A stretch of DNA of 64,000 nucleotides from a virus. The stretch covers positions 32,001-96,000 of the IMG/VR virus record IMGVR_UViG_3300045988_161114, one strand, 5' to 3'. The translations under genes were made by a program, and so were the position numbers. A model generated the notes under the pieces. It saw nothing but the letters and a program-made list of their open reading frames with translations. It searched no databases and was not told where the DNA came from. This document shows, one piece after another, positions 11,511-62,965 of the stretch. Position 1 is the stretch's first letter, and each line of letters opens with the position of its first letter.

Positions 11511-11512
11511 AT

Positions 11513-11770: not shown

Positions 11771-11801
11771 TATCAAAATTGAAGTAGTTCGTTTTATTTT
11801 T

Positions 11802-12574: not shown

Positions 12575-12584
12575 GAGGATTAAT

Positions 12585-13088
12585 ATGAAAGAGTATAGTT
12601 TAGAGCAGCTTAAATGGCTTAAAGTAGAATCATTTAAAAGTAAAAATAAAGTAAAGGAGAATATCCTTGCACTTGTTATTTCTAAAATAGAAACTGAAGG
12701 CAAACTTCATAATAATACTGATAAGGATTTTGAAGCAAAAGTTGTTTTAGAAGCTTTACAGTCTTTCTATAAAAGTTTAACTAAAACTCTTTTTGAGTTT
12801 TCTGATCGTATAAAAGATTCTGAAGAAGTTGAATCTGATAAAGCTCTAACGTTTATAAATAAAACAGAGCATGAGATTGAATTTATTTTATCTCTTCTTC
12901 CTGATCAATTATCTGATATTGAAATAACCAATATCGTTGAAAGTTTTGTTGAAGCAAATGGTCTTGATCTTAATGATAAGAAATCAATAGGGCAAATTAT
13001 GGCACATATGAATGCCAATTATAAAGACCAGTTTGATTCTAGAATTGTAATGGAAGTTATAAATTCTCTTAAAGGTAGTAAAGCTTGA
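12585..13088 (+). CDS. GatB/YqeY-domain protein; start moved to ATG 12585
   Basis: The layout matches YqeY-type proteins: N-terminal helical LKxxxxxSxKxKNK..., then LPDQLSDIEITNIVESFVEANG...KSIGQIMAHMNANYKDQFDSRIVMEVINSLK (compare YLPEQLSEEEL..IV...I...G....MGKVMG..M...KG.ADG..V...V...L). GAGGA lies 6-7 nt upstream of ATG 12585. Confidence 0.6.
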   Translation: MKEYSLEQLKWLKVESFKSKNKVKENILALVISKIETEGKLHNNTDKDFEAKVVLEALQSFYKSLTKTLFEFSDRIKDSEEVESDKALTFINKTEHEIEFILSLLPDQLSDIEITNIVESFVEANGLDLNDKKSIGQIMAHMNANYKDQFDSRIVMEVINSLKGSKA

Positions 13089-13987: not shown

Positions 13988-14111
13988 GGATTTATAAATG
14001 GATATTCAAAAACTCACTTTTATAAAAATGTCCGGTTTCATAGCATGGTTGCCGGGCATGTCACAACTATTCAAGAAAAATAATAAATAATTTAGTTTTA
14101 TAGGTATCTTT

Positions 14112-14564
14112 ATGCATTATGTACGCTCTGATATAGAAGATGGCATTAATAAATTCTTTGTATTGATATCAAAAGACGTCTTATCAGATATTGACGTTGG
14201 ACTCTCTTGTAATATAGAAAGACTATATAATAATGGTCTGCTTATAGAGAATAATGAATTTGAATTTTTCAAATTTCTTATAAAGACATTGATTAATTCT
14301 GATAGTATTGAAAGCGTTATAGACTCTGTCGGTATCACTACTGTAAAAGATTTGAGTCTATTGATGGAGTCTAAAAGGATAGAATCAGATATGCGCATTT
14401 GGGGTAAATATCTGTTAAATGAGTTTATTAAAACTTATGAAAAGTATTCCTTTTTGGTATATAAATTAAATAGCGGCACGTTATCTTTAGATGAGTGTCT
14501 TGATGCATATGAGAATTATAGCTCAGAAGATATCTATAATAAAATTATTGATTGTATTTCGTAA
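14112..14564 (+). CDS. Hypothetical protein (150 aa), last gene of the plus-strand module
   Basis: Complete ORF followed by a strong terminator. No motif recognised. Confidence 0.55.
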   Translation: MHYVRSDIEDGINKFFVLISKDVLSDIDVGLSCNIERLYNNGLLIENNEFEFFKFLIKTLINSDSIESVIDSVGITTVKDLSLLMESKRIESDMRIWGKYLLNEFIKTYEKYSFLVYKLNSGTLSLDECLDAYENYSSEDIYNKIIDCIS

Positions 14565-44800: not shown

Positions 44801-47800
44801 AGTGAAGATCTATTTCTTGGTGCTGTTTTTCTTATCCAGCCTATATCCATAAGTCCTTCTAGACCTATCTGATACATTCCTAGATATGATTCATTGCCAG
44901 ATGGATTTAGTCTTCCCCTTGACTCTATTGCTGCTATTGATCCTGCATAGCTTCTTAGAAGTGTACTATTTATAAGTGATGTACCTTTTTGACTTGTAAA
45001 GCCAGCACTAGATGCTGCTGCTATACCTTTCAGATCTCCACCGCCAAGACTGTAATCATTGAAGTCTGTAAATGGTTGATATCCGTTTGCAACAACAGAT
45101 TGCATAGCTGTAGATTCTTTTGGTAAAGCTATTCCGTCTTTTGCTTTAGGTTTCTCAAGTGTTCCTGGAGTTATACCCATACCTATTGCAGATTGACCAT
45201 TTGTTCCAGCTATTGCTGAACCAAGGTCTTCCCACCAGCTTTTCTTTTTACCTGATTCAGGAAGATTACTGCTAGGAGCACCTAACCCATTTATTGATCT
45301 ATGGAATGCTGCAGGGTCTACTGGTGTACCGTTTACATTTACTTGATAATGTAAATGTGGGCCTGTAGAATGACCAGTGCTACCACAGAATCCTATTAGC
45401 TGTCCAGCTATGACAGGTTGTCCTGGTTTAACTGCGAATGCGCTTAAGTGCATATACCATGTTGTTATACCACCAGCATGTTGAATGTAAACAGAATTAC
45501 CACCCCTTCCGCGATTAGATGCAACTGTTACTTTGCCAGTAGCTGCTGCATATATTGGAGTTCCAGTTGGACCTGCTAAGTCTATTCCGTGATGAAATCC
45601 TCCGCGTCTCATACCGAAAGGAGAAGATATTCGAACATGCTTCATTATTGATGACAAATCTTTTAGCCACAATCCTGATCCTGAACGAACACCCAGTTGG
45701 GCACCCTTAAGTGTACTTGATGTAAATTGTCCATTCACGCTATCTACACTGCCAGCAGAAACTGTACCATCTGGATTTATTGTTCCTGATGACGCAACGG
45801 CATTAACTTTTGTAAAGTTTCTTGTTCTGTCTGTACTGCTTCCCGGGCCATTAACCATCGCATTGGTATCTTCAAGTATTTCATCTATAAGTGGAGATGA
45901 TTGTTCCCACTTGGCCATTATCTTATCGCCATCAAATATTTGTTGGTCATATACAAATGGCAGGGCAGGTAAATCTTTCCATGAACTATATTCATCTGTT
46001 GAAGGAATGTCATGAAATATTTCTTTATATTTCATATCTGGGATTGCTTCACCAGAAAATGATGTACTGCTTCTATGAGTTTTATAATAACTCTTTTCTT
46101 TTTCCAAATCTTTTGATAAGGCATCAATAGTGTATTTATTGAAAGAGCTTCCAAGTGCACTTTTATATGCAGATGTAACTGCCTGTTCAAAATTTCTTAA
46201 ACGCTCTCTTAGAACTCTTTCCTCAGATGGAGTAGCTGAATGACTTTTTATAGCTTTAATATATTCTTTTATGAACATTGTAGATTTCTCTGTGTCTGTC
46301 ATATTAGAATATTTTTTACTTCTTAGCATAGGTTCTAAGAATAAGCCTACATCTGCGGTAGGGTCTTCCGCTTTCTTAACAGAAGAGTCTATATAAACTT
46401 TATATTCTTCAATAGCTTTAACTATTGGCTTGTTTATCTTATCAAGTACGTCTTTTAGTGCTGATGTATTTGCACCCTTTTTGTACTCTACGCTTGCCAT
46501 AGCAAGCAGATCTCTTATAGTCTCTGCTTGCGCTATTATGTCGTTGTAAGCTTCTTTGTTAGAGGCTTTTACAAATTTACTATTCTCAAGGAAGTCTGTT
46601 GAATCAGATTCTATAAACGAATAGTTATTTGTAATAACATTATTCATATTCCCAGTTGTAGAAGACTGAGATGAATCTATTATTACATATTTAACACCCA
46701 TTGCATTAACAATAGGGTTCTCTATTGCAATTACATCTAATCCTTTTAATGCTGGATATGTAACTCTTATATTTTTTGTAAATTCATCTACGCGGTCAAT
46801 AGCCATAGTAGCTGATGCCGCATCCATACCTTCTTCATGATTAGTTATAGTAGATATATTTATCTCTGTAGGAGAATGTCCTAAATATTGACAATAGGGA
46901 TAACTAAAATCCTGTATTGTTTGGTTTGCAAATCTATTTCTTCTTCTTATATTAATAGATTGTATTGCTATATTATCCTTATTTTTAGAAGAATTAGTGC
47001 CACCGATTAGTTCTCTTTTCCATCCTACATTTATTCTACCAGTCTCATCAAATCTAACTTCTTCATCTGATTTAACTTCTGATATGTTAGCATTGGTTTG
47101 TTGGCCATCTTTAGCATCTGTACCAGATAAGTCAACCTTTTTCAGAATTCTAAATGTTCTTGCCTCTTCCCAACATAAGTCATGAAGCTCTCTATGCAAT
47201 TTAATTGCGTCTGTAAAAACAATAGGGTATCCAAGATACAAATCGAAATCACGATTGTATCCCTGATTTATTATTTGTGTTTTATATTGATTTACATCTG
47301 ACCTGTAGAAGTCTACAAGTTTTTTCATTAAATTAGAATCACCAGGATTCAATTCATATTCAGTTTTGTATCTTTTAGAGCTTTTAGATTTTTTAGAGAT
47401 AGATTTAGAATTTGTTTTTGACTCAGCTTGCTGATTGAAAGATATGAATTTTATTGTTTTTGCTAGTGGCTTCCAGTTTATAGTTTGTAATCTTAATGAA
47501 ACAAAAGCCATACCTTGCATATTGTCTGATGCACCTAATTCAATTTCATATTCATGCAGTGCGTACATGAAGTATCCGTCACCAATACTTAATCCTAGCA
47601 TACTTAAGTCTGATGTACCCATAGCTTCACACCTTATGAACATATATGGGAATGACCTACATATAGATATAAGGTCACACATTTCTTCGACACTATCACT
47701 TTTAGACAAATCGAATGCGAAAGTCGCCAAATGTAGCGACTCCGCAAATCGAGATTTAGATGTCAATACAGATGTGTCCCTTAAGAACTCGTTTTGTGTT

Positions 47801-47880
47801 GTATAAAATTTATTAACTTTATCAACAGAAACTGGTTCTATATCCAATATTCCATTTATTGAAAAGGTAAATCTTGACAT
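41839..47880 (-). CDS. Giant multidomain tail protein (2013 aa): M23 peptidase + lysozyme/transglycosylase-like domain + hub (gpD/gp27-like) region + C-terminal TM cluster
   Basis: M23 motifs FHHGIDLAGPTGTPIYAA (HxxxD) and GHSTGPHLHYQV (HxH) at about 45300-45660. AAIESRG...SYLGMYQIG (catalytic-Glu-type lysozyme-like motif) at about 44560-44960. IRLKAGNKVQIRMGYGNKIDDLPVVFNGLITETDGGDVVRVVAEGYGREL is hub-like. Gly/Ala-rich hydrophobic helices at about 41990-42480. Confidence 0.7.
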   Translation of the reverse strand: MSRFTFSINGILDIEPVSVDKVNKFYTTQNEFLRDTSVLTSKSRFAESLHLATFAFDLSKSDSVEEMCDLISICRSFPYMFIRCEAMGTSDLSMLGLSIGDGYFMYALHEYEIELGASDNMQGMAFVSLRLQTINWKPLAKTIKFISFNQQAESKTNSKSISKKSKSSKRYKTEYELNPGDSNLMKKLVDFYRSDVNQYKTQIINQGYNRDFDLYLGYPIVFTDAIKLHRELHDLCWEEARTFRILKKVDLSGTDAKDGQQTNANISEVKSDEEVRFDETGRINVGWKRELIGGTNSSKNKDNIAIQSINIRRRNRFANQTIQDFSYPYCQYLGHSPTEINISTITNHEEGMDAASATMAIDRVDEFTKNIRVTYPALKGLDVIAIENPIVNAMGVKYVIIDSSQSSTTGNMNNVITNNYSFIESDSTDFLENSKFVKASNKEAYNDIIAQAETIRDLLAMASVEYKKGANTSALKDVLDKINKPIVKAIEEYKVYIDSSVKKAEDPTADVGLFLEPMLRSKKYSNMTDTEKSTMFIKEYIKAIKSHSATPSEERVLRERLRNFEQAVTSAYKSALGSSFNKYTIDALSKDLEKEKSYYKTHRSSTSFSGEAIPDMKYKEIFHDIPSTDEYSSWKDLPALPFVYDQQIFDGDKIMAKWEQSSPLIDEILEDTNAMVNGPGSSTDRTRNFTKVNAVASSGTINPDGTVSAGSVDSVNGQFTSSTLKGAQLGVRSGSGLWLKDLSSIMKHVRISSPFGMRRGGFHHGIDLAGPTGTPIYAAATGKVTVASNRGRGGNSVYIQHAGGITTWYMHLSAFAVKPGQPVIAGQLIGFCGSTGHSTGPHLHYQVNVNGTPVDPAAFHRSINGLGAPSSNLPESGKKKSWWEDLGSAIAGTNGQSAIGMGITPGTLEKPKAKDGIALPKESTAMQSVVANGYQPFTDFNDYSLGGGDLKGIAAASSAGFTSQKGTSLINSTLLRSYAGSIAAIESRGRLNPSGNESYLGMYQIGLEGLMDIGWIRKTAPRNRSSLYNDSYWTIPGGYKAFISSRELQDQAFVLYTQKNIDYLSAKPGWSKLSFQDKVLAVAMSHNGGHSAGWKALQGKDSRDGNNTSRQKYGRVAMSLSAAVSKGNAGVGIFSRDAAGYTSNYYDNVAVQRNNEAVEFNTDPTPWDPNLQGKARISNMVKDYTWGLEKLIPTYKVYLVHGNNENTLFKLINTSVEAVYYEISTVRNIRVEMANQDNPVAVAYFEVLNSLNTSTDPTTGYNTADKLGNTKLDLTSLGSDFANVVAMDQIRLKAGNKVQIRMGYGNKIDDLPVVFNGLITETDGGDVVRVVAEGYGRELQNELIFAGDVLPFTTFASDTSGRYISAAVARIVKNARLQHFGANPKILGEDVDTNSSGTAAQGVSGQSGFSLSNSLWNSSSGEFFFYDFKGPTDHLENFWLMNVDMVDRFFVTEWNDLFPFSLNDYFVNFPVLNKTVWDVITTGRRLFPSSVALIKNIGARCTIFTGIKEQLMVGYETAHSVASEVFENINGGLLDKDSQHAQEVEEAANAKNVKGSLGIPVNSTDGIKKRQRETTAKFEVLKDNPGQVADVVSSVMGSKTIDSTAWVPATNFHMFSSATNIISNQLRLNQDVITQANVEYGTEPSDFGTGKNKMFDMKSNGGLMPAFTKSSYLTDSTLNTEGMAIKTGQGYLLEELEKMYTGSVIISGNPDVAPGDYAYISDSLRQMSGVMKCREVQHILTEDDGYITIITPGMFVEPATHLYSSLYIKLGMFYSMLAQGQREYALVSVNSSPTGEMYSKLSIAPTKIGFWDVGWATAGSLAAAAASAMLLKTAASYVSTALWGPIVGHVASGWARFSKVSFIVRGLSSMKGALGGIWARVATAGRTIATVINGVRTVGLAASIGTGGLIATAAATIVVAAVVIAVWGILKNVWEANKERITMRHRALMKMPLTVYGQEYTAGLLGWNDELSPIELQVKNLKTTWESLAKVWGATKDTKASTKARILYSIATD

Positions 47881-52889: not shown

Positions 52890-55800
52890 TTACCTATTAT
52901 ATATAGTCATATCGAAATCACCATGACCACTATTGCTTATATTGACATTTACTGCTCTTACGCCATTACGATATAGTTCATCTTTTATCATATTCACAGC
53001 ATCAAACCTTTGTTGGGCCTTAGTTCTTCTAATAGATTTAAGCTGAGTTGTAACCTGATCTTCTGCAAGTATTGCTGATTGTCTTTTTAGATCGTCTTGG
53101 TCATCTTCGTAATAACCAAATTCTATGGCATTCTCACCACCTATATTTAATGTTCTAAGTTTTATATCTTTGACATTTAATCTAGGGTCCCATCCTGCAA
53201 ACTTCTCATCAGGCATTCCTGTTGCATCGACTATTAATTGCTCTGCTCTTCTTTCTTGTAGGTATTCTCTAAATGATATACCTATGTCGGCATCGCCACT
53301 TCTTTTATATGCACCATAAACTTGTGAGTTATTTTGTATAAGTTGCTGCTCTTCATCTTGTAGATATTCTGAGACATCTCCGCCGGATTCAATTACATCT
53401 TTACGGCTCCACAACATCTTGTACATTTCTGATACATTGTTTCCATCAACAATAGCAGCAATACGTTGTCTATCAGAGTCCTTTGCATTTACAAATGATG
53501 TAAAATACTGTTTCTCTTCGCTGGATAATCCCATATATGCAGAACTTACATCTTTTTCGGTATCAAGTCCTGATGCCAATGCACCGTATGTAGTCTTGTA
53601 AGCTTTTGCCTTTGCCTGATTCGCTATAAATAAATTGCCTTTAACATTTTCTCTATAAACTTTCATTTGTTTATAGTATTCCAATGCTTCAAAGTAATTA
53701 TCTATATTACGTTTTTCTTGTGTATGCTCTGGTATATATGATTTATCAAATGATTTATAGCTTTCCTCAAAGAATGGTCTTATGAAATGTTTAAATGGTT
53801 CATTCCATAATGCTGTATCAGAAGCTATTAACTGAGTTTTCTCGTAATCTTCTATAGCTGTTCTTTGGTGTAGTAACTTACCGGCAGGTCTGAAGAATGT
53901 TAATCTCTCTGTCGGTAGTTCTGCATTATGAGTTATTGTTTCCCATAACTTACCAAGAACCTCTCCACCAACAGATACATTATCAAAATCTTCATCAGTC
54001 TTATACTCTGCAAATGTTTTCTTTTGCGCTCTTCTTTGTAACTGATCCCAAGTATTCTCGAATATTCTTTTCTCGGACTCTGTCATTTCACCAGAGTTAT
54101 ATCTAGACTCCATTAACTCTTTTGCATTGTAGAATTCACTTGAGCCGTATGCTACATCTGATAGAACTTTAAATTTATGTATATCAGGATATTCTTCTAA
54201 ACTCAATCCTGCAACTTCTGGATTGTAATGTTCATATCCTGCACCTGGCATTCTATCATAGCCAAGTTCTACATTTGCGTAGTAGTTACCTTTTGAGAAA
54301 TCTGTGTAATATTCTCCTCTGGGAAGCCAAGATGGAGCAACACTGTTATGTAAAGGATTTGCTCTATCATACAATACACTAGATGACATTGGAACTATAC
54401 GACGCAGTATATCCGCTGCGCCAAATAAACCACCAAGGTTTTGTTCAGTAAATTCTCTTGCAAAGTTTGTTGATTCACCTGACCTTGCTAACTGGTTCTT
54501 TTGAGAAAAATCGCCTACAGCAAAATCACTTAGCACACCAGATACTGCCCATCCTTTAAGACCTATAAAGTCTGATGCAGAGTTATAGATATATTGTGCT
54601 GATTCTGCATATGGAGAGTATGTAAGGTTCTTACGCCCAGTAATCATTTTGTCATTTATCAATGACTGTTCTACATTTGAATAGTTTACTGGAACTTCAA
54701 AACTTGGTTTTCTTGTTATATCTCCAAAATTATATGCAAATGCATATGAGTTCTCATCACTAACATAGTAGTCCTGTGGTACTGACTGAAGATTTTCCAT
54801 CAGCTGAGCCATGTTAGGATTTATTCTATCTGGTTTAATTATTTGACCTATTGTACGTTCAAATATTTTACCGGCCCAACCACCTACTGATACGTCCATA
54901 CCCCATATTGGATATGGCATATCATCTTGGTGCATTTCTTCAAATCTATATGGATTTTGTAAATAATCTATTGGATTAAGGAATGGATTTAGGTCTTCTT
55001 TGGTGTCTCCATCGCCATAAAGAATTTTATCTTTATTGCCTGCAATTAATCTTTGATACCAGTTCTTAGTGAAGTATTTTACACCGCCACCCTCTATATC
55101 CGTAGACCCAGAGAACCATAATGCATTTGATCTTTGTTCAACATCTTCACCGTATAGATATCTGTCTTTTAACGAATCTGATGATTCACCAGCTAAAGCA
55201 CCAGGAAGAAATGGTAATGCTAATGCTAGTCCAGCTAGTGCACCTCTCATTGCCCATTTTTTAGTATTAGCTATTCTGCCTAATGATGATCCTATCGGCG
55301 TATTACTTACAAGCTTAGATACGCTAGAGTTTATAACATCACCCTCTGCATGAGCAACCCTTTGTCCAGCTTTATATCCATCATCTGACAACACAGATGG
55401 AACTACACGTTTACTGTAAGCTACAGTACCGGCAAGCATTGCTCCTGCTAATGGGAATCCAGCTAGTCTTAGTAACGATGTTGAACCAGGGGCTACATAT
55501 TCTTGTTGAGTTGTATACTCTTCAAACCTATCAGATACTGTTTCTGCATATGCTATTCTAGCATTTACTGCTGTTGTTGCTACACCTTCTAATATACCCT
55601 GGTCATATCCGCTTCCACTTGTACCGATTACTTTAGCCATATTATCCAGTGTATAATATGCTGCACCAAGTATACCAAGTTTTACTGCACCATGTTTAAC
55701 ATATCCAACTGCCAAGTCTGATATTTTCATATCAGCATTTGCATGTCTATTTATTCTTCCATATTTATTTATAAATCTAAATATACCATTATTTTCATTA

Positions 55801-56711
55801 AACAGTGTTCCGCCAAGTTCTTGAACGAATCCTAATGGCTCGTTGACCATATTGAAGCCTTGAGCTATACCTTGTCCTATTACAGATTTAATCCATCCCT
55901 TATTTATATTAGCGTCTTTTGCATCTGCAATTATTGTAAATGGAGCTTCTGTATCAAGAATATTTTTAGACAATTCAAATATTTCTTTTCTAGAAGAAAA
56001 GCTCATATCCTGCTGATGTATAATATGTCTTCTTAGTATTTTATTATACATTGAACTTTGAGCATGGCCATTTGTATGACCTGTCCATTCTGATGTAACA
56101 AGTCTTGCATTGCTTATTACTTCTTCATCACTAGAAGAAAATAATTTACCATCTCTGTATAACAGCCCGGTAGATATGTCCGCCGATGTTATACCTCTGT
56201 TGCCATATTTATGTGCTAATTCTTCAAAATATTTCTTTTGATGTTTTAATAGTTCAGGAGTGAAGAAATGCTCACCATTTTGAGTTGCAAATGGCTGCAT
56301 TATATGAGAAGTCTGGAATGTTCTTAAAATAGAAAAAGGGGAGAGTTCCTCAAACGCCCTAGCAGTGTTCATTGCTAAGTTTGTTAAGGTGACTCTCCCG
56401 CCGTATGATCGGATAGCATCATCTGCTGTTCCATTAATTGATTCAGATAAATAACTTAGAGTTATGTAATCTCTAATTTTATTTTGTGCGCTTTGCCTTT
56501 TTAGTATCTCTTTTACCGTAAATAATGCACCTGCTGATAATCCATACTTTGTTATAGAGCCTATTATTTCTTTTGTAGCCTGTATCTCTTCATATGTATT
56601 TACATCATCTGATGTATACATATTATATGGGGATTTAACATCCCCTGGTTGTATTCCCTTATCAAATACTTTTTGGCCAAAAATATTTGCAGCTAGATTT
56701 TGTACTGACAT
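52890..56711 (-). CDS. Giant tail-internal/virion protein (1273 aa); candidate tape measure
   Basis: First gene after the chaperone-like pair, which is the canonical tape-measure position. Internal hydrophobic Gly/Ala segments (LLRLAGFPLAGAMLAGTVAY, ALAGLALALPFLPGALAG). Aromatic-rich. Confidence 0.4.
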   Translation of the reverse strand: MSVQNLAANIFGQKVFDKGIQPGDVKSPYNMYTSDDVNTYEEIQATKEIIGSITKYGLSAGALFTVKEILKRQSAQNKIRDYITLSYLSESINGTADDAIRSYGGRVTLTNLAMNTARAFEELSPFSILRTFQTSHIMQPFATQNGEHFFTPELLKHQKKYFEELAHKYGNRGITSADISTGLLYRDGKLFSSSDEEVISNARLVTSEWTGHTNGHAQSSMYNKILRRHIIHQQDMSFSSRKEIFELSKNILDTEAPFTIIADAKDANINKGWIKSVIGQGIAQGFNMVNEPLGFVQELGGTLFNENNGIFRFINKYGRINRHANADMKISDLAVGYVKHGAVKLGILGAAYYTLDNMAKVIGTSGSGYDQGILEGVATTAVNARIAYAETVSDRFEEYTTQQEYVAPGSTSLLRLAGFPLAGAMLAGTVAYSKRVVPSVLSDDGYKAGQRVAHAEGDVINSSVSKLVSNTPIGSSLGRIANTKKWAMRGALAGLALALPFLPGALAGESSDSLKDRYLYGEDVEQRSNALWFSGSTDIEGGGVKYFTKNWYQRLIAGNKDKILYGDGDTKEDLNPFLNPIDYLQNPYRFEEMHQDDMPYPIWGMDVSVGGWAGKIFERTIGQIIKPDRINPNMAQLMENLQSVPQDYYVSDENSYAFAYNFGDITRKPSFEVPVNYSNVEQSLINDKMITGRKNLTYSPYAESAQYIYNSASDFIGLKGWAVSGVLSDFAVGDFSQKNQLARSGESTNFAREFTEQNLGGLFGAADILRRIVPMSSSVLYDRANPLHNSVAPSWLPRGEYYTDFSKGNYYANVELGYDRMPGAGYEHYNPEVAGLSLEEYPDIHKFKVLSDVAYGSSEFYNAKELMESRYNSGEMTESEKRIFENTWDQLQRRAQKKTFAEYKTDEDFDNVSVGGEVLGKLWETITHNAELPTERLTFFRPAGKLLHQRTAIEDYEKTQLIASDTALWNEPFKHFIRPFFEESYKSFDKSYIPEHTQEKRNIDNYFEALEYYKQMKVYRENVKGNLFIANQAKAKAYKTTYGALASGLDTEKDVSSAYMGLSSEEKQYFTSFVNAKDSDRQRIAAIVDGNNVSEMYKMLWSRKDVIESGGDVSEYLQDEEQQLIQNNSQVYGAYKRSGDADIGISFREYLQERRAEQLIVDATGMPDEKFAGWDPRLNVKDIKLRTLNIGGENAIEFGYYEDDQDDLKRQSAILAEDQVTTQLKSIRRTKAQQRFDAVNMIKDELYRNGVRAVNVNISNSGHGDFDMTIYNR

Positions 56712-56713: not shown

Positions 56714-57244
56714 TTACACCGGAGGAACATTATTCTGTGGTTCTTCTATATTTATTTCTTTTATATGCTCTGGATATGTTGCATGACATATAGCATATAA
56801 TTCAAATAATTTATTTACTGGAAGTTCTACAACTTCTAAGTATGGAGTGTGCATATATCTAGAAACTATTGCAGCCATTTGGTCTAGTAGAGTTACCGAC
56901 TCCCTGTCTCTTTCAAATGCCTTTTGTGGATCTTGTGCATATTCTAATGACTTAGATAATATTACACTAGATACAGTTGTTATGAATCCTGCAGGTGCCT
57001 CATCGAAGTTTACATCTCCTACTATTCCTGGAATGGAGATATAGCATTCTCTGAATATATCTTCGTATAGCTCTTCTCTTACATAGCCTTTTTCTAGATC
57101 CATTCTCAGTATTCTCTGTATCTCTACAGAATTAAGTAGTCTAGCTATTACTATAAGATTTCTATAAATATATCCGCCCAATTCTATATCAGTATCATTA
57201 AATGGAATTATTATACTTCCAGATTTGACACCTATTGCATTCAT
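56714..57244 (-). CDS. Tail assembly chaperone-like protein (176 aa)
   Basis: Position between the tube paralogues and the giant ORFs. Assignment is by position only. Confidence 0.35.
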   Translation of the reverse strand: MNAIGVKSGSIIIPFNDTDIELGGYIYRNLIVIARLLNSVEIQRILRMDLEKGYVREELYEDIFRECYISIPGIVGDVNFDEAPAGFITTVSSVILSKSLEYAQDPQKAFERDRESVTLLDQMAAIVSRYMHTPYLEVVELPVNKLFELYAICHATYPEHIKEINIEEPQNNVPPV

Positions 57245-57245
57245 A

Positions 57246-57740
57246 TTAAATTACCTTTATTTGACTTAAAGCTAATGATTCAGGTACAAATGAAGATTTG
57301 TACATTATCTGCTCTTTTAATGATGATACAACACCAGCACTTGATGTTGCCATAAATTTTTCATCTGGCTTAGGGTACAACAGACATTTCTTAACTATTG
57401 CCTCTTCGCCACGAAGTGCTTCGTTTAAGAATCCGCTTTTCATAAGCTGTTTATATTCTTGTCGTCTTAATGTACGCCATAAATATAAATCTGATTCATT
57501 TAGAATAGTTGATATATGAATTACGCCATATTGTGCTTTCCAGTTTTCGATATCTGCTTCTGTTGGAGCATTTTCAAGATTAGCTAATGTCTTAACTATT
57601 AAAGACATTTCCGACTCTTCTTGTACCTCTTTGTCTTTTTCTTCTTCTAGACGTTGAGATATTTCTATTGCCTCTTCAACAGTAAGGTCATCTTCTGGTA
57701 GCGTGCTTAATCCTTTTACTTCTTCTACTGTTAATGCCAT
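57246..57740 (-). CDS. Acidic tail assembly chaperone-like protein (164 aa)
   Basis: Highly acidic N-terminal half (EEAIEISQRLEEEKDKEVQEESE). Position upstream of the candidate tape measure. Confidence 0.4.
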   Translation of the reverse strand: MALTVEEVKGLSTLPEDDLTVEEAIEISQRLEEEKDKEVQEESEMSLIVKTLANLENAPTEADIENWKAQYGVIHISTILNESDLYLWRTLRRQEYKQLMKSGFLNEALRGEEAIVKKCLLYPKPDEKFMATSSAGVVSSLKEQIMYKSSFVPESLALSQIKVI

Positions 57741-57741: not shown

Positions 57742-58566
57742 TTATCCTCTTACTTCTTTTGCTATGAATCTGTAGCCATCAACTAATTGACCATCGCTAC
57801 CTATATCGACACTGGTTTCAAACCCTATTATTCTTATTTCTTGTATATCAACATATTGTCTTACGCCAGACATAGTTGGGTCACCATTATTATAAGAAAT
57901 TGTGATATTAAAAGTGTCAAGGTCGGCCCAGTCTAATACCGACTTATTGGAAACTTTACCAATTTCCATTGCCGTCTCTTTCTCTTTGTATACTCTTAAT
58001 TCTTCTGATGTAAGCTGCATTTGTTCATATGGTGTAAGTCTTCTGAACTCAGAGGTTTTATTTATATTGTCTAATACTCTTGGCAAATAGTCTTTATTGC
58101 ACTTGTTTATTGATATAAAACCAGTTACCATATTGTTTCCTCTTGATAGGAAACTATATCTAGAATTACCTATAGTATATATTGGTACACTAGATAGTGA
58201 CTCATTTATGCCTATGCCGGAAACCTTATCAAGCCATATATCTTCTATGTATATCATACAATCGCTTGACGAGTAATATTTATTATATAGTCCATTTACA
58301 AATCCATGTCCCTGCAAAGGCCTTTTGCCTTTTACATTAACTTCTTTTAATTGAACATAGTCTATAGGATTTGCTCTTGAACCTTTGTTTGCATTATTAG
58401 ACGCATTTACGGCTCTTGCTGTAGCCTTTGGACTGGCTCCACTACTTGTTTCACCAGTCCCTGAATTTACGGTAGTTAATGATACACTTCCATCTCTATT
58501 TTCAGACGCATAAACTGTATCTACAGTTCCATCATCTCTGTCTACGACTGCTGTTATTGTACTCAT
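57742..58566 (-). CDS. Tail-tube-fold paralogue (tube initiator- or terminator-like), 274 aa
   Basis: Shares tube-family strings with ORF 59995-60669: VPIYTIGNSRYSFLSRGNNMVTGFISI vs APVFTMGSPDAKAIARGKRYVSGACIF, and C-terminal DGYRFIAKEV vs KQMSFIAKRV. Confidence 0.55.
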   Translation of the reverse strand: MSTITAVVDRDDGTVDTVYASENRDGSVSLTTVNSGTGETSSGASPKATARAVNASNNANKGSRANPIDYVQLKEVNVKGKRPLQGHGFVNGLYNKYYSSSDCMIYIEDIWLDKVSGIGINESLSSVPIYTIGNSRYSFLSRGNNMVTGFISINKCNKDYLPRVLDNINKTSEFRRLTPYEQMQLTSEELRVYKEKETAMEIGKVSNKSVLDWADLDTFNITISYNNGDPTMSGVRQYVDIQEIRIIGFETSVDIGSDGQLVDGYRFIAKEVRG

Positions 58567-58569: not shown

Positions 58570-59967
58570 CTATCCTGATTTCTTATTTGTCTTACGCCAT
58601 ACAGAAGGCATAACAACTGTATTGCCAGTTCCCCATAGCCCTCTTTTTTCTCTTTTTGCGGCTAATGCAGCTTCATTAAGCTTGGCTCTTTTATCTTCTG
58701 ATTCGCCAATCTGTTTAACACCAGCATCCATATAATGCGCTGTTCCAGCTGATACTGCTGCTAATACATAATTATAATTATACACTAGAGTACGGCCATA
58801 AACATCTGTGCCTGCAATTTTTACTACGCCATCTTTTACATCTTGATCCCATTTGCCAGACTTAACATACTCCTTCATAAAGTCTGAAGCCTTATACCCA
58901 TACTCTTGTGGCTTAAGATCTCTATGCTCAGTCTCTGGTGTATCTATACCTAAAAGACGTATAGTGAATTTACCTTTATAATCGCTTCCTGTTGATGTTT
59001 TTACGCCACCATTCCATACTAAGGTGTCGCCGTCGTCTACTTCAAACTTATCGCCTTTATCTAGTGCAGTAAGTGATGACGAGTCTATATCCTGTGATTT
59101 TGGATATACATATTTTTTAGTGCCACCATTTGTATATGGATCGCTTTTATATATTCTATACTCGTAAGGAAGGGATTCCAAATTGTAATTAGGATCCTCT
59201 CCTAATCCTGCTAATTGAGATAATGTTGATATAACCTTTTGCTCATCTGGTGTAATTTGTCCATCAAGATTAGCCTGGTTTTTATATTTTTCAAGTGCGT
59301 TTTTAAACCACTCTTGATCTGGATTTGTATTAGATTTATCTGATTTATATTTTGTATTAGATTTGTCTGATAGCTCAGATGCTTTCTTTCCTGTGCTACC
59401 AGTAGTTATATTGTACTTTGTAGAATTCAAACTTTCAAGAGTCTGTCTAGCATCGCGTGCTACAAATGATATTGTATTTTCAACAATAAGGTCTTGTATA
59501 GAATGTACTTGACCGGAATTAATTAGTGTCGCGCCATATATTATTTCAGATACGGAGAAGTTGCCGTATTCAGAACTTAATACTATTATTATATCGAATG
59601 GCAATATATCATCCATCATAAGATGGTGATATGTTTTAGAGTTTTCATATTTTAATGCGTATATAGAATCTATATCTTTATTCAATCCTATATCTTTTGA
59701 TACTTCATTTAAGAATGCCCTTAAATCATCATTTAGGAACATTGCTTTTATAATAGAGCCCGCTACATATCTTTTGCCAATAGCAAACCCGTCGATATTG
59801 GTGTTCCCTAAATTATAGACAGGTACTTTATCCCTGTATGTCTGATATGAGAGAGATATCAAACTTCCCATATATAGTGCGCCGTATCCAGGGAAGTTAA
59901 AAATAATGTGGGTGGCATCGCCACCCACTGAATGATACTCTCCCTTTCGTATATTGTCATATGACAT
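58570..59967 (-). CDS. Tail-tube paralogue fused to a C-terminal staphylococcal nuclease (SNase/thermonuclease) domain
   Basis: N-terminus: GEYHSVGG, KVPVYNLG, AIGKRYVAGSII, LPFDIIIVLSSEYG and ISFVARDA all parallel the tube ORF. C-terminus: DDGDTLVW, FTIRLLGIDTPETEHR and DVYGRTLVYNY match S. aureus nuclease IDGDTVKL, FRLLLVDTPETKHP and DKYGRGLAYIY. Confidence 0.8.
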   Translation of the reverse strand: MSYDNIRKGEYHSVGGDATHIIFNFPGYGALYMGSLISLSYQTYRDKVPVYNLGNTNIDGFAIGKRYVAGSIIKAMFLNDDLRAFLNEVSKDIGLNKDIDSIYALKYENSKTYHHLMMDDILPFDIIIVLSSEYGNFSVSEIIYGATLINSGQVHSIQDLIVENTISFVARDARQTLESLNSTKYNITTGSTGKKASELSDKSNTKYKSDKSNTNPDQEWFKNALEKYKNQANLDGQITPDEQKVISTLSQLAGLGEDPNYNLESLPYEYRIYKSDPYTNGGTKKYVYPKSQDIDSSSLTALDKGDKFEVDDGDTLVWNGGVKTSTGSDYKGKFTIRLLGIDTPETEHRDLKPQEYGYKASDFMKEYVKSGKWDQDVKDGVVKIAGTDVYGRTLVYNYNYVLAAVSAGTAHYMDAGVKQIGESEDKRAKLNEAALAAKREKRGLWGTGNTVVMPSVWRKTNKKSG

Positions 59968-59994: not shown

Positions 59995-60669
59995 TTATTT
60001 GCTATTGTAGCTGTCAATTGCCATCCAGTTAGAAACACGTTTAGCAATGAATGACATTTGTTTTTCTAGAACAAGGTCATCAACAGACACACCACCAGCT
60101 TCACTCATAAGCTCTACACCGTAGATAACCATCTTAGATGTATGACCGTATTCATTTGTAGCAACAAGGCTGATATCAAATGCCAATACTTGGTCAGCAA
60201 GGTTAGCTTTTGTTTTTGTACGCAATGCGTTATTGATGCTTGTATTAGAAGTGAGATTATTTGCAGTGAAGTTGTAGTCAGCAGCAACTGTACCGCCTGA
60301 TCTAGTTGCAGCAGAAGCAGCAGTAGATGCATAACCATCTTGATATTTACCGCCATTGATTTGGCTATAAATACCGCCACGTTGATAGTTAGCAGACTCG
60401 TGTTTGCTCAGATAAACAGTTGTATTATCTTGTTCATCCATAGCTTCAAGCAGAGAGTCACGGTCGAATACAGTGAAGATACAAGCTCCAGAAACATAAC
60501 GTTTACCACGTGCAATTGCTTTGGCGTCAGGAGAGCCCATTGTAAATACAGGAGCCTTTTCTCTGTCTACACGGTAAGAAACCATTGACATTTCGCCGAA
60601 TACTTTGCTACCGAATACAGGTGTGATATCTACACCACCAAAGCTGTGGTATTCCTTAAATTCTGACAT
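59995..60669 (-). CDS. Tail tube protein
   Basis: 224 aa, immediately downstream of the sheath gene. Founder of the three-member paralogue set. The sheath-tube order is conserved in contractile tails. Confidence 0.7.
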   Translation of the reverse strand: MSEFKEYHSFGGVDITPVFGSKVFGEMSMVSYRVDREKAPVFTMGSPDAKAIARGKRYVSGACIFTVFDRDSLLEAMDEQDNTTVYLSKHESANYQRGGIYSQINGGKYQDGYASTAASAATRSGGTVAADYNFTANNLTSNTSINNALRTKTKANLADQVLAFDISLVATNEYGHTSKMVIYGVELMSEAGGVSVDDLVLEKQMSFIAKRVSNWMAIDSYNSK

Positions 60670-60688
60670 AATTTTATCCTGATTGTTA

Positions 60689-60710
60689 AGGAGAGGTGTT
60701 ACCCTCTCCT
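60689..60710 (-). terminator. Stem-loop between sheath and tube genes (attenuator or RNA-stability hairpin)
   Basis: AGGAGAGG (60689-60696) / CCTCTCCT (60703-60710), perfect 8-bp stem with a 6-nt loop, in the 49-bp sheath-tube gap. Weak U-tract. Confidence 0.4.
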
Positions 60711-60718
60711 ATTCTTTA

Positions 60719-62965
60719 TTAAAGATCTAAAGCTAATTTAACTGCTACGTTAACTTCACGAAGCTCAAAGGCTGGAACGATTGTTAACGCTACGTTTAAA
60801 GTACCTTTTCCGTTGATAACAGTAGGCTGGTTAACAACGTGAGAATATTTAACTACTGCATCAGCAGCAACTGCTTGGTCAAGTACAGACTCAATAGCTG
60901 TATCCAGAGCAACTTTAGTTGCTTCTGTTAGACCTTTACCAATGTAAGGAATACATACGTTACGGATACCAGTAATAACAGAGTTAATGATGATCGATGT
61001 AGAAACGTAATCATAGTCAGAGTTGATGTTGGTAGCCAATTCACCAGACACTACACGAACTACGTTATTTTTGGTTTGGAATGTAACATATCCGGCGCCA
61101 GACAGTTGGTTTAGCTTGGTTTTCTTCATTTCAAATGGCAAGCTTAGTCTTGGCAGAGGAGCATTGGTAGTAGAGTTACCAGCGTTAATTGTGGTCAGAA
61201 GACCAGCATAGATTGCAGCAGCATTTGTGATTCTTGTAGAAGTACCAGTAGATGAGCTAGCTGGAGTGATTACAAGTTGTGGAACAACAGACAGGTATTT
61301 ACCAATATCAATGTTTGCACCATTGCTGTCTACTTGAACAACACCATCTACGAAACCAGAAGAGGTTTTGTAATAACCTTGTGCCTGGTCAGCACGTTCA
61401 ACCATATGGCGAACACCTAACAGACCAGTACCGTTAGTGATAATGTTACCAGCAGCATCATAGGTAGGAGCAGAACCAACCCATTTGTTTACTGCGAATG
61501 TAGAGGTTGTTTGAGGAACAGATGTGCCGATTGTTACAAGGGTAAATTGTTCGTTTTCAGAGATGTTGTATGCAAATTCTGCAAGCAGGTGTGCAAAGTC
61601 AGCTTCATGATAACGTCTGTAAACGATAGGTTGTCCGTTACCGTTTATGTCAGCTTCTGTAGAGTTCAGAGTAGTGCCGCTACCTTTACGATATACAACT
61701 TTAGATGTAGACCATTCAAATTTGTACTCACCATCTTCTTCTGATACATATACATATTCCAGTCTGTCTTTAGCGGTAGAACCAGATGCAATGTTTGGAG
61801 CATCTACGATAGCGTAGTCTGTAACAACAGACATAGCATTTACTGTTTCAAGGTCTTTCAGACCAGCATATAGAATCTCGTAGTATTCTTTCCAAGTACA
61901 GTTCAGGCTGTCTTTACCTTCTTTAAATGTCCCAGGAACTGAAGAACCAGTTTTAGCAATGGTGTAATCAACAGCGATTGCTTCTTGATCGCCTGGGGCA
62001 GTTTGAAGTGTAAGAGCTTTGCTCAGGTTGTCATCGCTTGCTTCTACAGTAGCTTCTGATGTTTTATCTACACCGGCAACTACAACACGGTCGATTGTAA
62101 CTTGGCTGTTAGCATGAGTGCCAGCAAGAACAAATTTAGTTTTAGCGCCGTCGCCACTGAATACAGCTGCACCGGCCTCATTGCCAGTAGCAATGTAATC
62201 ATAAGTAATATTTACTTTGGCACGTGCATCTTGTGCAGAATTGAATTTAATTTTCCAGTAGTTATTCAGAGCGTCTTTGCTCAGGGTATAGTCAGAGCCA
62301 GATGCTTTTTCTGCGTCATTGACTTTAACAACTACGTTTGTAACGTTGTCAGTTTTTGTTGTACCAACAAGTCTAAATTCTGTATTAACACCGTTACTGA
62401 TGTGGTTTGATTCACCTTTTTTGGTTACAGGAATAATATTAGACATCAGGACTGGTTCTGTAGGAGTACCGATTACAACACCAGTAGTTTCATCAAAACC
62501 AGTAACTGTTACTTGGTTAAGGTCAACCTCAGAACCAGGAACGTTAGAGTAAACGATGTTTTTACCTTTAAATACGATTAGGCATGATTTACCGTCATTG
62601 CTAGGACGAGGACCGCAGTAGATACGGAAGCTATCACCAGCTGCAACAGATTCTTCAACTGTAGCAAGTTGTGAACCTTCACCCCAAAGTCCATTTAATG
62701 ATGCTGGAGATCCACCAATACGGTATAGTGATACTTCTGTTGCACCACCTAGACGAGCTTCAGACATCTTTCTGATCAGAGGAGATTCTGGGCCAAATGT
62801 ATTAGCAGCTTTGTTGGTATCACCAACATTATATATTCTTCCAGAGGTACCCATTTCAGCACGACCGATAATTAAGACGCGGTTAGCATCAGATGTAGAG
62901 TCTACTCTTAAATTACCGTCTAAAAGCTCCAGATTTACGCCTGGCAGATTTTCATATGTAGCCAT
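60719..62965 (-). CDS. Contractile tail sheath protein
   Basis: 748 aa. The N-terminal ATYENLPGVNLELLDG resembles the sheath N-terminal P-G-V motif. Followed by the tube gene. Higher GC and biased codon use suggest high expression. Confidence 0.8.
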   Translation of the reverse strand: MATYENLPGVNLELLDGNLRVDSTSDANRVLIIGRAEMGTSGRIYNVGDTNKAANTFGPESPLIRKMSEARLGGATEVSLYRIGGSPASLNGLWGEGSQLATVEESVAAGDSFRIYCGPRPSNDGKSCLIVFKGKNIVYSNVPGSEVDLNQVTVTGFDETTGVVIGTPTEPVLMSNIIPVTKKGESNHISNGVNTEFRLVGTTKTDNVTNVVVKVNDAEKASGSDYTLSKDALNNYWKIKFNSAQDARAKVNITYDYIATGNEAGAAVFSGDGAKTKFVLAGTHANSQVTIDRVVVAGVDKTSEATVEASDDNLSKALTLQTAPGDQEAIAVDYTIAKTGSSVPGTFKEGKDSLNCTWKEYYEILYAGLKDLETVNAMSVVTDYAIVDAPNIASGSTAKDRLEYVYVSEEDGEYKFEWSTSKVVYRKGSGTTLNSTEADINGNGQPIVYRRYHEADFAHLLAEFAYNISENEQFTLVTIGTSVPQTTSTFAVNKWVGSAPTYDAAGNIITNGTGLLGVRHMVERADQAQGYYKTSSGFVDGVVQVDSNGANIDIGKYLSVVPQLVITPASSSTGTSTRITNAAAIYAGLLTTINAGNSTTNAPLPRLSLPFEMKKTKLNQLSGAGYVTFQTKNNVVRVVSGELATNINSDYDYVSTSIIINSVITGIRNVCIPYIGKGLTEATKVALDTAIESVLDQAVAADAVVKYSHVVNQPTVINGKGTLNVALTIVPAFELREVNVAVKLALDL

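Follow-up and report, generated by a model that had tools for sequence, protein, structure and literature searches.

A tail-tube paralog joined by a flexible tether to an intact staphylococcal-type nuclease in a large human-gut phage

The window analyzed here is a stretch of 64,000 nt (positions 32,001 to 96,000 of the virus record IMGVR_UViG_3300045988_161114). Its tail genes include an open reading frame (ORF) for a 465-aa protein in which a tail-tube paralog is fused, via a flexible tether, to an intact staphylococcal-type nuclease (SNase) domain. The tail genes and the parts of this ORF are as follows:

60719..62965, minus strand: tail sheath, 748 aa (phrog_16991 tail sheath, E 4.8e-69)
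59995..60669, minus strand: main tail tube protein, 224 aa (phrog_9206, E 2e-44), directly after the sheath gene and at the position of 0305phi8-36 gp140 'tail tube'
58570..59967, minus strand: whole ORF, 465 aa, with tube-fold domain, tether and SNase domain (from the ORF list)
59440..59940, minus strand: tail-tube-fold domain, aa 10-176 (BLASTP, phrog_9206, AF2, Foldseek)
59320..59439, minus strand: low-complexity K/S/N/T-rich tether, aa 177-216, predicted to be disordered (AF2 pLDDT 27-37)
59324..59370, minus strand: duplication with a 27-nt period, two copies of a 20-nt unit with one mismatch, encoding SDKSNT-KYK-SDKSNT (read from the sequence)
59053..59319, minus strand: variable, partly helical spacer, aa 217-305 (AF2 helices)
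58618..59052, minus strand: SNase (thermonuclease) domain, aa 306-450 (Pfam, phmmer, Foldseek, invariant residues)
58573..58617, minus strand: basic C-terminal tail, aa 451-465, with P454 and R458 (P-x-x-W-R) invariant in the family alignment
57742..58566, minus strand: third, divergent tube-family paralog, 274 aa (phrog_33096, E 7.6e-4), in the slot of 0305phi8-36 gp142
56714..57740, minus strand: two small genes, 164 and 176 aa, where 0305phi8-36 has its tail chaperonins gp143/gp144 (by synteny)
52890..56711, minus strand: 1273-aa protein at the tape-measure position (by synteny alone)

The order of sheath, tube, paralog, third paralog (gp142), two chaperones and tape measure is common to this locus and 0305phi8-36. 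The 164-aa protein matches phrog_29362 and, unlike the domain-sharing gp143 and gp144 of 0305phi8-36, shows no similarity to its 176-aa neighbor; for the 1273-aa protein, our searches returned no family match. A candidate for the hub is the 2013-aa ORF or one of its neighbors. The 274-aa protein had been taken for a further tube paralog in an earlier, sequence-only reading of this DNA. Direct comparison with the tube family is weak (BLASTP E 0.02; hhalign probability 59%, E 9.6e-5), and the paralogy holds through intermediates instead, because phrog_33096 is also matched by 0305phi8-36 gp142 (E 1.8e-14) and by the 'tail tube protein' gp028 of KLEB27-3, and gp028 in turn matches the tube family phrog_9206 (E 7.4e-16).

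The ATG of the 465-aa ORF has a GGAG 8 nt upstream. An assembly or frameshift artifact was rejected as the source of the fusion because an identical 465-aa protein is present on nine metagenome contigs (including one human-gut contig of 184,711 bp, ERZ914781 k127_25176), because the fusion is kept in 69 full-length homolog clusters at 90% identity, some of them comprising hundreds of member sequences, and because the gene order around a distant homolog on a 172.8-kb contig (P0069) matches that of the query locus. Contigs with the fusion reach ~170-190 kb, with one of 344 kb, and some come from human-gut metagenomes. Whole-protein identity in the 70-sequence fusion family goes down to 34%. The tube-SNase family is not rare.

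The N-terminal domain of the 465-aa protein belongs to the phage tail tube/Hcp/gpV tube-fold superfamily. By BLASTP, aa 10-171 align with aa 6-210 of the adjacent 224-aa tube protein (E 4e-18, 29% identity), which has a ~55-aa insertion that is absent from the 465-aa paralog. Five blocks had been proposed to be common to the two proteins (EYHSxGG, PV(F/Y)xxG, GKRYVxG, FDIxxV..EYG and SF(I/V)A(K/R)); all are present and lie within this alignment. The protein also matches phrog_9206 (E 9.6e-20), and its tube domain, which has 1577 representative homologs, many of them tube-sized (180-260 aa), is the most conserved part of the fusion family (mean pairwise identity 0.755). When the full-length protein was modeled in AF2 with 22 close homologs, the N-terminal domain had a pLDDT of 30-55; an alignment with 46 diverse tube proteins raised it to 81.9 (pTM 0.74). 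In Foldseek, the resulting model matched the tubes of phage 812, HFTV1, AFP, PVC, phiCD508 and lambda (E 2e-7 to 1e-5, probability 1.0) and those of SPP1 and T4 (probability 1.0), with baseplate tube chains of AFP and PVC among the matches; the best viral structure match was A7KUR5 (502 aa, E 1.7e-14). Structure search alone succeeded here: sequence-level searches of the PDB with the N-terminal domain, the main tube protein and a 43-sequence tube profile returned nothing meaningful. A confident model and matches to solved tubes thus bear out the proposal that the N-terminal half adopts a tube fold. Matches to the tube domain in a plasmid collection were all from Firmicutes, and a GTDB genome scan for relatives that might serve as a host clue found none.

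Both phrog_9206 and RefSeq label this tube family 'major head protein'. The tube assignment corrects that label, which is spreading through databases.

Tether and spacer together (aa 176-305) have a mean family identity of 0.436 and vary from 104 to 140 aa across the family, with indels. Within the tether, a K-A-S-x-L motif is conserved, A196 and S197 being present in at least 90% of the family alignment. AF2 places helices in the spacer at aa 217-232, 240-252, 268-271 and 296-299, with a pLDDT of roughly 64-81 over aa 221-270 that falls below 50 at aa 272-290. Because the spacer is the least conserved region and carries indels, a free tether fits better than a fixed 'handle.' The 27-nt duplication reported in the linker is real but small, with the 20-nt unit TCAGA(C/T)AAATCTAATACAAA occurring twice; Tandem Repeats Finder run on the ORF (score 30) did not call it, and it was confirmed by eye.

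The C-terminal domain carries the SNase signatures where the sequence-only reading had placed them: DGDT at 59023-59034, RLLGIDTPE at 58933-58959 and YGR at 58792-58800. Profile and structure searches agree on the fold. PF00565 matches aa 335-445 (E 5e-14; 53.1 bits against a gathering cut-off of 21) over model positions 1-105 of 107, S. aureus nuclease chains in the PDB match aa 330-449 by phmmer (E 2e-8), and Foldseek returned more than 50 SNase entries at E ~3e-6 with a target TM of 0.61-0.66. The AF2 model of the domain, with a pLDDT mostly of 81-95, is an OB-type β-barrel with helices that can be superposed on S. aureus nuclease.

SNases, which in the presence of Ca2+ hydrolyze DNA and RNA to 3'-phosphates, bind the metal through Asp21, Asp40 and the backbone carbonyl of Thr41, and their catalytic residues are Arg35, Glu43 and Arg87. 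On proper alignment, the Ca-binding and catalytic residues of the phage domain are intact, as the earlier reading required: D312, D314, T315, R337, D342, E345 and R392 (D19, D21, T22, R35, D40, E43 and R87 in S. aureus nuclease numbering) are invariant in all 70 family sequences, while the position of Y85 is Tyr in 69 of the 70 and that of T41 is Thr or Ala. This pattern suggests that the domain is a catalytically competent nuclease. We weighed the alternative that the SNase fold has become a noncatalytic OB-fold that binds a baseplate partner or a surface polymer, comparable to the LysM-like domains of PVC initiators. C-terminal modules of tube initiators can indeed be purely structural, and most relatives carry binding domains, not enzymes. 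However, the metal-ligand and catalytic positions have stayed invariant while 40% of the domain varies, and the one relaxed ligand position, T41, is limited to Thr or Ala and contributes a backbone carbonyl, as expected of a functional active site. We consider a noncatalytic module highly improbable.

The phage domain shares its fold and the full Ca-ligand and catalytic set with S. aureus nuclease A, the YncB/thermonuclease family, SPbeta YokF and cyanophage endonucleases. Those thermonucleases are free secreted or soluble enzymes that are at most ~38% identical to it, whereas the phage domain is tethered to a structural protein and has a family-specific SGKWDxDV segment in addition to the P-x-x-W-R tail. 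Its nearest relatives outside the fusion family are thermonucleases of 130-280 aa. The window holds no second SNase copy or donor gene, and a search for further tail proteins with an SNase domain returned small stand-alone thermonucleases alone. One faecal contig match from the SNase search (L008), with overlapping long ORFs on both strands, looked unrelated and was set aside.

In 0305phi8-36, the best match of the 465-aa protein is ORF141 (gp141; 502 aa), a seed of phrog_9206 annotated as 'tail tube paralog; identified as virion protein by mass spectrometry'; KLEB27-3 has three genes named 'tail tube protein', of which the second (gp027) matches best. The second tube genes of 0305phi8-36 (gp141), KLEB27-3, WH1, Edson, Acinetobacter ME3 and pBTHD789-2 are homologous to it in the N-terminal domain (tblastn E 1e-13 to 5e-20), and in 0305phi8-36, KLEB27-3 and the Bti plasmid pBTHD789-2 the gene occupies the identical slot, with the main tube gene on one side and the third paralog on the other. 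The gp141-type relatives are 28-35% identical to the 465-aa protein and all lack the SNase domain. Like the 465-aa protein, gp141 has a long C-terminal extension, which has no Pfam match, whereas no extension follows the tube domain in KLEB27-3 gp027 or in the pBTHD789-2 protein. From this orthology we infer that the 465-aa protein is probably a virion component as well.

These comparisons bear on the reading in which the protein acts mainly as a soluble late enzyme, its tube-like domain merely oligomerizing or assembling in traces, and the free protein digests the DNA of lysed cells that traps progeny. Phages often carry SNase as a gene of its own (183 records, with cyanophages and SPbeta yokF among them), and Ca2+ gating would allow such an enzyme to be switched on only after lysis. 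Against this, mass spectrometry places the ortholog gp141 in virions; the tube domain is better conserved than any other part of the protein and keeps the motifs shared with the polymerizing tube; and 69 clusters have retained the fusion, whereas an unfused gene would do for a soluble role. We therefore give a mainly soluble role little credence.

The second tube-paralog slot carries swappable C-terminal modules: none, PG-binding, lysozyme or nuclease. PG_binding_1 is found in 30 of the 81 long representatives whose N-terminus is a tube domain, and others have SH3_3, Ig-like domains or lysozyme; in the same gene slot, one contig (P0070) encodes PG_binding_1 and another (P0128) a gp5-like tail lysozyme (phrog_13211). 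The C-terminus of the second paralog is thus a natural payload insertion point for engineered phages and contractile injection systems. The PG_binding and LysM-like modules of relatives are no proof that the cargo faces the cell wall, because such initiator modules are structural glue in PVC.

Where in the tail would such a subunit sit? The sequence-only reading had left this as a tube initiator, terminator or distal subunit; comparative evidence and the solved three-paralog tubes narrow it toward the initiator, that is, the baseplate end. The three tube paralogs of T4, phiKZ, Goslar and PVC are a main tube and two basal rings. T4 gp54/gp48, Pvc7/Pvc5 (Afp7/Afp5), phiKZ gp88/gp182, Goslar gp62/gp203 and 812 gp113 combine, like the 465-aa protein, a tube fold with a C-terminal appendage, which in these solved rings points outward. 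The C-terminal LysM-like domain of Pvc7-type initiators extends outward as far as the wedge and sheath initiator, and gp113 of phage 812 is a β-barrel with a C-terminal handle that rides the tube tip through the wall with the hub. The 465-aa protein parallels Pvc7 and gp113 in being a tube-fold paralog that is distinct from the main tube and bears a C-terminal appendage. It differs in that the appendages of the known initiator rings are docking elements, either LysM-like or helical, rather than enzymes, and no sequence-level homology to solved initiator rings was detected. Gene position differs as well. In most well-studied myoviruses, the initiator gene follows the tape measure and adjoins the hub, whereas here it adjoins the tube gene, upstream of the tape-measure position and apart from the genes for hub and baseplate. 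Because the paralogs are located between tube and chaperones, the initiator assignment is one of analogy; the gene order may simply differ in the 0305phi8-36 lineage, since this slot is conserved across it.

Decoration of the whole tube was rejected, as a sheath gene is present. The tube domain of the 465-aa protein resembles lambda gpV in that a C-terminal domain would be displayed outside the tube, and its model also matches the siphophage tubes 7t4f_A, 8k36_A and 8iyk_D in Foldseek. In siphophage tubes, however, every subunit of a sheath-less tail is decorated, and with a nonenzymatic Ig domain, whereas here the sheath encloses the tube along its length, and therefore only an end ring can carry cargo.

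The end ring could also lie at the head-proximal (neck or terminator) side, with the tethered nuclease hanging from the collar. The fold alone cannot separate basal from apical rings, the Foldseek matches include the neck or cap chains 8q01, 6rap and 9qgn, and a tether this long and flexible could emerge from either end. Yet the terminators known for tubes and sheaths differ in fold and have their genes upstream of the sheath gene, the extra paralogs are at the baseplate end in every solved three-paralog tube, and the gp5-like tail lysozyme found in the same slot makes sense solely at a cell-facing end. A head-proximal ring seems improbable to us.

We favor, with roughly even confidence, a model in which the 465-aa protein is a one-ring subunit of the tube-initiator class at the baseplate end, with an outward tether and an active, Ca2+-gated nuclease that targets envelope or extracellular nucleic acid. 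In this model, a contractile phage tail would contain the protein as a minor structural subunit: (i) the tube-fold domain would form one hexameric ring, as initiator or adaptor, like T4 gp54/gp48, Pvc5/Pvc7 or 812 gp113, the 274-aa paralog would supply the neighboring ring and the 224-aa protein the remaining tube; (ii) the chain would emerge C-terminally from the ring, at the tube's outer surface, and continue through the ~130-aa variable, partly disordered tether to the nuclease, so that about six tethered nucleases would surround the DNA conduit without entering it, within the baseplate core or right beneath it; and (iii) on sheath contraction, the tube tip would take the nucleases along into the host envelope. 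Enzymes of the S. aureus nuclease A type need millimolar Ca2+ and are typically extracellular, cytoplasmic Ca2+ being far lower. The SNase domain would therefore be silent in the producing cell and active outside, and its most likely target would be extracellular or surface-associated DNA or RNA at the site of adsorption and penetration; unassembled copies freed at lysis could act too. We infer ring position, copy number, Ca2+ gating and substrate, with Ca2+ dependence and substrate extrapolated from S. aureus nuclease. Among the points against the model, the baseplate would have to accommodate six appendages of 290 residues each or let them thread outward, and the spacer, which would need to dock there, is the poorly conserved part of the protein.

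Another possibility is an injected effector: the nuclease would reach the cytoplasm with the tube tip and degrade the host chromosome, plasmids or competing phage DNA. The closest parallel is Hcp-ET from type VI secretion systems (T6SS), in which Hcp-ET1 has an HNH-DNase and Hcp-ET3/4 have pyocin S3/colicin DNases; like the 465-aa protein, these are tube-fold subunits of a contractile machine with a C-terminal nuclease, and they are delivered by contraction. The tip of the phage 812 tube, with initiator and hub, is pushed through the wall and reaches the cytoplasm, and the invariant catalytic residues of our family would also suit an effector. On the other hand, the low Ca2+ of the cytoplasm is unfavorable to an SNase, the enzyme would be exposed to the genome that the phage itself is injecting, no gene for an inhibitor or an immunity-like protein stands out (what follows is the 274-aa paralog), and the authors of the 812 work leave open whether the core proteins stay on the tip at membrane penetration. 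We judge this reading decidedly unlikely. Hcp-ET are bacterial T6SS proteins with cognate immunity genes and HNH- or colicin-type nucleases that act in the prey cytoplasm, whereas the 465-aa protein has a phage tail context, an SNase fold, no immunity gene and, by analogy with S. aureus nuclease, probably a Ca2+-dependent extracellular activity. The tube model shows weak fold similarity to Hcp 8gra_B (Foldseek E 5.8e-5), Pfam finds no Hcp domain (PF05638) in the 465-aa protein, and the gene sits in a phage tail module with a tube paralog downstream. It is thus an analog of Hcp-ET, not a member.

The fusion had been put forward as one without a described example. In the literature searched, we found no description of a tube-SNase fusion or of a virion nuclease in the tube or baseplate core, so this part of the claim stands; partial precedents exist in the Hcp-ET DNases and in an SNase of a hub protein. 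Hardies et al. (2007) reported an SNase-like domain on the hub protein of BtI1, a relative of 0305phi8-36, and called its purpose 'obscure.' A 2457-aa giant tail protein of pBTHD789-2, encoded just upstream of SLT/amidase and M23 genes, has DGDT...VETPET...KYGR, a weak SNase-like match (Pfam E 0.15, below the cut-off) in which D40 is replaced by Glu. Thus the BtI1 hub protein, and probably the pBTHD789-2 protein, have an SNase-type module on a tail-tip protein in the same lineage; there the carrier is a giant hub-region protein with the module N-terminal, whereas here it is a tube paralog with the module C-terminal.

Phage tails carry cell-wall hydrolases; the present fusion suggests that the injection tube of this virus bears at its tip an enzyme that cuts DNA/RNA. 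We regard it as unlikely that the basal ring uses contraction to bring six active nucleases into the envelope or cytoplasm of the host for the destruction of access-blocking surface or matrix eDNA, of host or plasmid DNA, or of competing-phage DNA. If true, such delivery would be the first phage counterpart of the T6SS Hcp-ET DNase effectors, and the second tube-paralog slot would be a general site for swappable cargo (SNase, lysozyme, PG-binding). For the large phages in the Firmicutes-associated 0305phi8-36 lineage, a nucleic-acid step at penetration has so far gone unconsidered. If the enzyme is active on particles, these phages would meet a nucleic-acid barrier or target as they penetrate, be it eDNA of the matrix or cell surface or DNA inside the cell.

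The fusion of a tail-tube domain to a staphylococcal-nuclease (SNase) domain is real and conserved. It is encoded, with GGAG 8 nt 5' of the ATG, by a 465-aa ORF in the contractile-tail module of the window. In transcription order the module reads:

748-aa sheath protein (phrog_16991, E 4.8e-69), first
59995-60669, minus strand: 224-aa main tube protein, between the sheath and the fusion
58570-59967, minus strand: 465-aa fusion protein (from the ORF list)
274-, 164- and 176-aa proteins
1273-, 1664- and 2013-aa proteins
41839-47880, minus strand: the 2013-aa protein, with Peptidase_M23 at aa 762-856; it also hits giant tail and lysin PHROGs

The 2013-aa protein is likely a hub or tail-lysin protein; the 1664-aa and 1273-aa proteins matched no family. 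A further tail-module protein of 1351 aa (31447-35502, minus strand), with a bactofilin-like beta-helix stretch at aa 733-812, is presumably a fibre or spike. Within the 49-nt sheath-tube intergenic gap (60670-60718) lies a stem-loop, GGAGAGG-GTAACA-CCTCTCC, which may act in RNA stability or processing; a terminator is less likely, since a T-run is absent. Coding switches strand near 14.5 kb (1-14500 plus, 14600-64000 minus), the plus-strand block encoding a primase-helicase, both RNR subunits, an ATP-dependent ligase and a PD-(D/E)XK nuclease. GC is ~0.40 at 20-24, 42-46 and 60-62 kb versus ~0.30 elsewhere.

The sequence-only reading had proposed an SNase domain at the C terminus of the fusion, and each signature motif that it named was located:

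59023-59034, minus strand: DGDT
58933-58959, minus strand: RLLGIDTPE
58792-58800, minus strand: YGR

The fold was likewise recovered. Residues 335-445 score 53.1 bits with Pfam SNase PF00565, whose gathering score is 21, and among PDB entries the C-terminal domain hits chains of S. aureus nuclease (E 2e-8). In the full-length AF2 model the domain has a pLDDT of mostly 81-95, and Foldseek superposed more than 50 SNase entries on it (E ~3e-6, TM ~0.63). A non-catalytic role for the domain is an alternative; in the 70-sequence family alignment the equivalents of SNase D19, D21, T22, R35, D40, E43 and R87 are invariant, and substitutions of the Ca-binding and catalytic residues were thus found in none of the 70 sequences (D21, R35, D40, E43, R87). 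The Y85 equivalent is Y in 69 of the 70, and that of T41, which in SNase binds Ca2+ through its backbone carbonyl, is T or A. In one homologue (P0067), ~22 aa that include two cysteines are inserted directly after IDTPET, in the loop adjoining the active site (columns ~418-440 of family alignment A1). No second SNase was found within the window.

The N-terminal half had been called a paralogue of the neighbouring tube protein, and all of the motifs quoted as shared by the two are present. BLASTP aligns aa 10-171 of the fusion with aa 6-210 of the 224-aa protein (E 4e-18, 29% identity), the sole large gap being a ~55-aa insertion in the latter. This insertion (aa ~85-150) is Ala/Ser/Thr/Asn/Gly-rich, and the fusion has short helices there instead. 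No sequence-level PDB relative of the tube domain was found, profile search included. Its AF2 model, built with 46 diverse homologues (pLDDT 81.9, pTM 0.74), adopts a tube fold: Foldseek returned solved tail-tube proteins at probability 1.0 and E 2e-7 to 1e-4 (phage 812, HFTV1, AFP, PVC, phiCD508, lambda gpV, SPP1 and T4 gp19-class chains). In a viral model library the top match was A7KUR5 (502 aa, E 1.7e-14), followed by the Acinetobacter ME3 'major structural protein' and phage G gp179/gp180.

Between the two domains, aa 177-216 are K/S/N/T-rich and predicted disordered (AF2 pLDDT about 30), and aa 217-305 form a partly helical spacer (pLDDT ~64-81 at aa 221-270, <50 at aa 272-290). The 27-nt tandem duplication described here earlier exists as a repeat with a 27-nt period (59324-59370), but its unit is 20 nt, in two copies with one mismatch, and Tandem Repeats Finder did not score it on the ORF. 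Just 3' of it, at a TTTAAAAA run (about 59300-59320), a 227-aa variant (P0071, 97% identical) loses the frame directly after NPDQEW and becomes a tube-only protein; the truncation could be a sequencing error or natural. A K-A-S-x-L motif is kept within the hypervariable tether (59380-59394, aa 192-196; A196 and S197 at at least 90% in A1) and may be a docking strand or processing site. Across the 70 sequences the tube domain is the best conserved part (mean pairwise identity 0.755), ahead of the SNase domain (0.602) and the tether (0.436), whose length ranges from 104 to 140 aa. Such a profile is expected for two functional domains and a freely drifting spacer.

Nine metagenome contigs encode an identical protein; the longest of those listed is a human-gut contig of 184,711 bp. 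In a word-indexed search over 5.8 billion proteins, 69 clusters spanned most of the fusion at 34-98% identity, 67 of them at 96-100% coverage (438-502 aa), plus one 340-aa fragment. Nearly all carry the PF00565 flag, and their contigs mostly reach up to 170-190 kb. Three GenBank entries for the fusion are labelled solely 'MAG TPA: nuclease-like protein [Caudoviricetes sp.]'. When the tube domain was searched exhaustively with HMMER over 1.84 billion representatives, 1577 relatives were found; among the best 150 the SNase is confined to the clade of the fusion, which for this reason looks like a single acquisition. The closest SNase relatives beyond the clade are stand-alone thermonucleases (130-280 aa, ≤38% identity), and in GenBank phages every SNase gene stands alone, as an 'endonuclease' gene. 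In the plasmid collection, every tube-domain relative comes from Firmicutes (Bacillus 19, Clostridium 2, Paenibacillus 2, Cytobacillus 1), GenBank phage relatives have Bacillus, Moorella and Acinetobacter hosts, and a GTDB scan found no relatives.

In Bacillus phage 0305phi8-36 the best match of the fusion is not the tube gene ORF140 but ORF141, whose record reads 'tail tube paralog' and states that mass spectrometry identified it in virions. The phage shares the gene order of the window (sheath, tube ORF140, ORF141 of 502 aa, ORF142, chaperonins ORF143/144, ORF145), and so does the neighbourhood of P0069, a distant SNase-bearing homologue. The chaperonin-slot proteins gp143 and gp144 share a domain, whereas the two small proteins in that slot of the window (56714-57740, minus strand) have no detectable mutual similarity. 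In KLEB27-3 three short genes annotated 'tail tube protein' stand in a row, and the best match of the fusion is the middle one; in the Bti phage-plasmid pBTHD789-2 the second paralogue, in the slot of the fusion, is 187 aa. phrog_9206 is essentially gp141, and phrog_33096 is matched by gp142, KLEB27-3 gp028 and the 274-aa protein of the window; gp028 also matches the tube family (E 7e-16). Judged by these links, the lineage pairs a main tube protein with two paralogues, and each of the three is a virion protein in 0305phi8-36. RefSeq and PHROGs call the tube and paralogue of this phage 'major head protein' (L002 5110-7452, NC_009760 ORF140/ORF141; phrog_9206), which the record's own notes (tail tube, tail tube paralog) contradict; the wrong label spreads to all homologues, the Moorella phage MTATph1 match included.

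Lengths of 400-920 aa are common among representatives whose N terminus is a tube domain. When 81 of these were scanned against Pfam, 30 had PG_binding_1 and one a phage lysozyme; SH3_3, Ig-like, cadherin-like and carboxypeptidase-regulatory-like domains were found less often than PG_binding_1. The PG_binding_1 example P0070 and the lysozyme example P0128 occupy the same slot as the fusion, and the C terminus of P0128 hits PHROGs labelled 'baseplate hub subunit and tail lysozyme'; the C-terminal extension of gp141 matched no Pfam family. Given such varied domains in one slot, the SNase is one among several modules appended to the C terminus of the second tube paralogue. An intein occurs in one long representative, and the tape-measure-position protein (1618 aa) of a distant relative (L004 11213-16069) has the intein splicing domain PF14890.

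Since the sheath encloses the tube, a 290-residue appendage would be possible on an end ring only. In PVC the tube runs from the initiator Pvc7 through one Pvc5 ring to Pvc1, corresponding to T4 gp48, gp54 and gp19, and Pvc7 and the AFP and AlgoCIS initiators carry a C-terminal LysM-like domain reaching outward to the wedge and sheath initiator. Tube-like proteins also form two basal rings in phiKZ (gp88/gp182) and in Goslar (gp62/gp203), and the phage 812 initiator gp113 has a beta-barrel and a C-terminal helical handle along the hub. By analogy with these structures, the tube domain would form an end ring at the baseplate end. A position at the neck of the tail is the alternative; the baseplate end is favoured because the same position can hold a gp5-like lysozyme or a module of peptidoglycan-binding type. 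Two points weaken placement as a baseplate initiator: initiator genes of most model phages lie beside the hub and not beside the tube gene, unlike the gene of the fusion, and the spacer varies too much for a conserved docking handle. We conclude that the fusion probably sits in the end ring at the baseplate end.

S. aureus nuclease is an extracellular enzyme that requires millimolar Ca2+. With the same Ca ligands, the nuclease of the fusion should be gated by Ca2+: switched off inside the producing cell, in which the phage genome replicates, and active outside. Tethered on the ring exterior, it would make no contact with DNA passing through the lumen. On the strength of this predicted gating and tethering, we favour extracellular or surface-associated nucleic acid as the target, at the point where the phage adsorbs and penetrates. 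Unassembled copies would possibly act after lysis, and a mainly soluble role is an alternative.

No description of a tube-SNase fusion or of a virion-associated SNase was found in the literature searched. The closest functional analogue, not a relative, is T6SS Hcp-ET, in which tube-fold proteins are fused to DNase toxins; delivery of the nuclease to the cytoplasm as an Hcp-ET-like effector is an alternative to the extracellular action that we favour. An SNase-related domain, of 'obscure' utility, was described by Hardies et al. 2007 at the N terminus of the BtI1 protein homologous to the hub protein of 0305phi8-36. This homologue is probably the 2457-aa tail protein of pBTHD789-2 (235 kb; L010 7199-14572, minus strand), whose gene lies directly upstream of SLT/amidase and M23 genes. 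Near its N terminus, at aa ~150-275, it reads DGDT...IRYNGVETPET...KYGR, with D40 replaced by E, and its SNase-like match is weak (Pfam E 0.15; 17.5 bits with the fusion-family HMM). With the BtI1 hub SNase and Hcp-ET as precedents, we class the fusion as a modular enzymatic decoration, of predicted function, on a tail-tip or tube-initiator protein.
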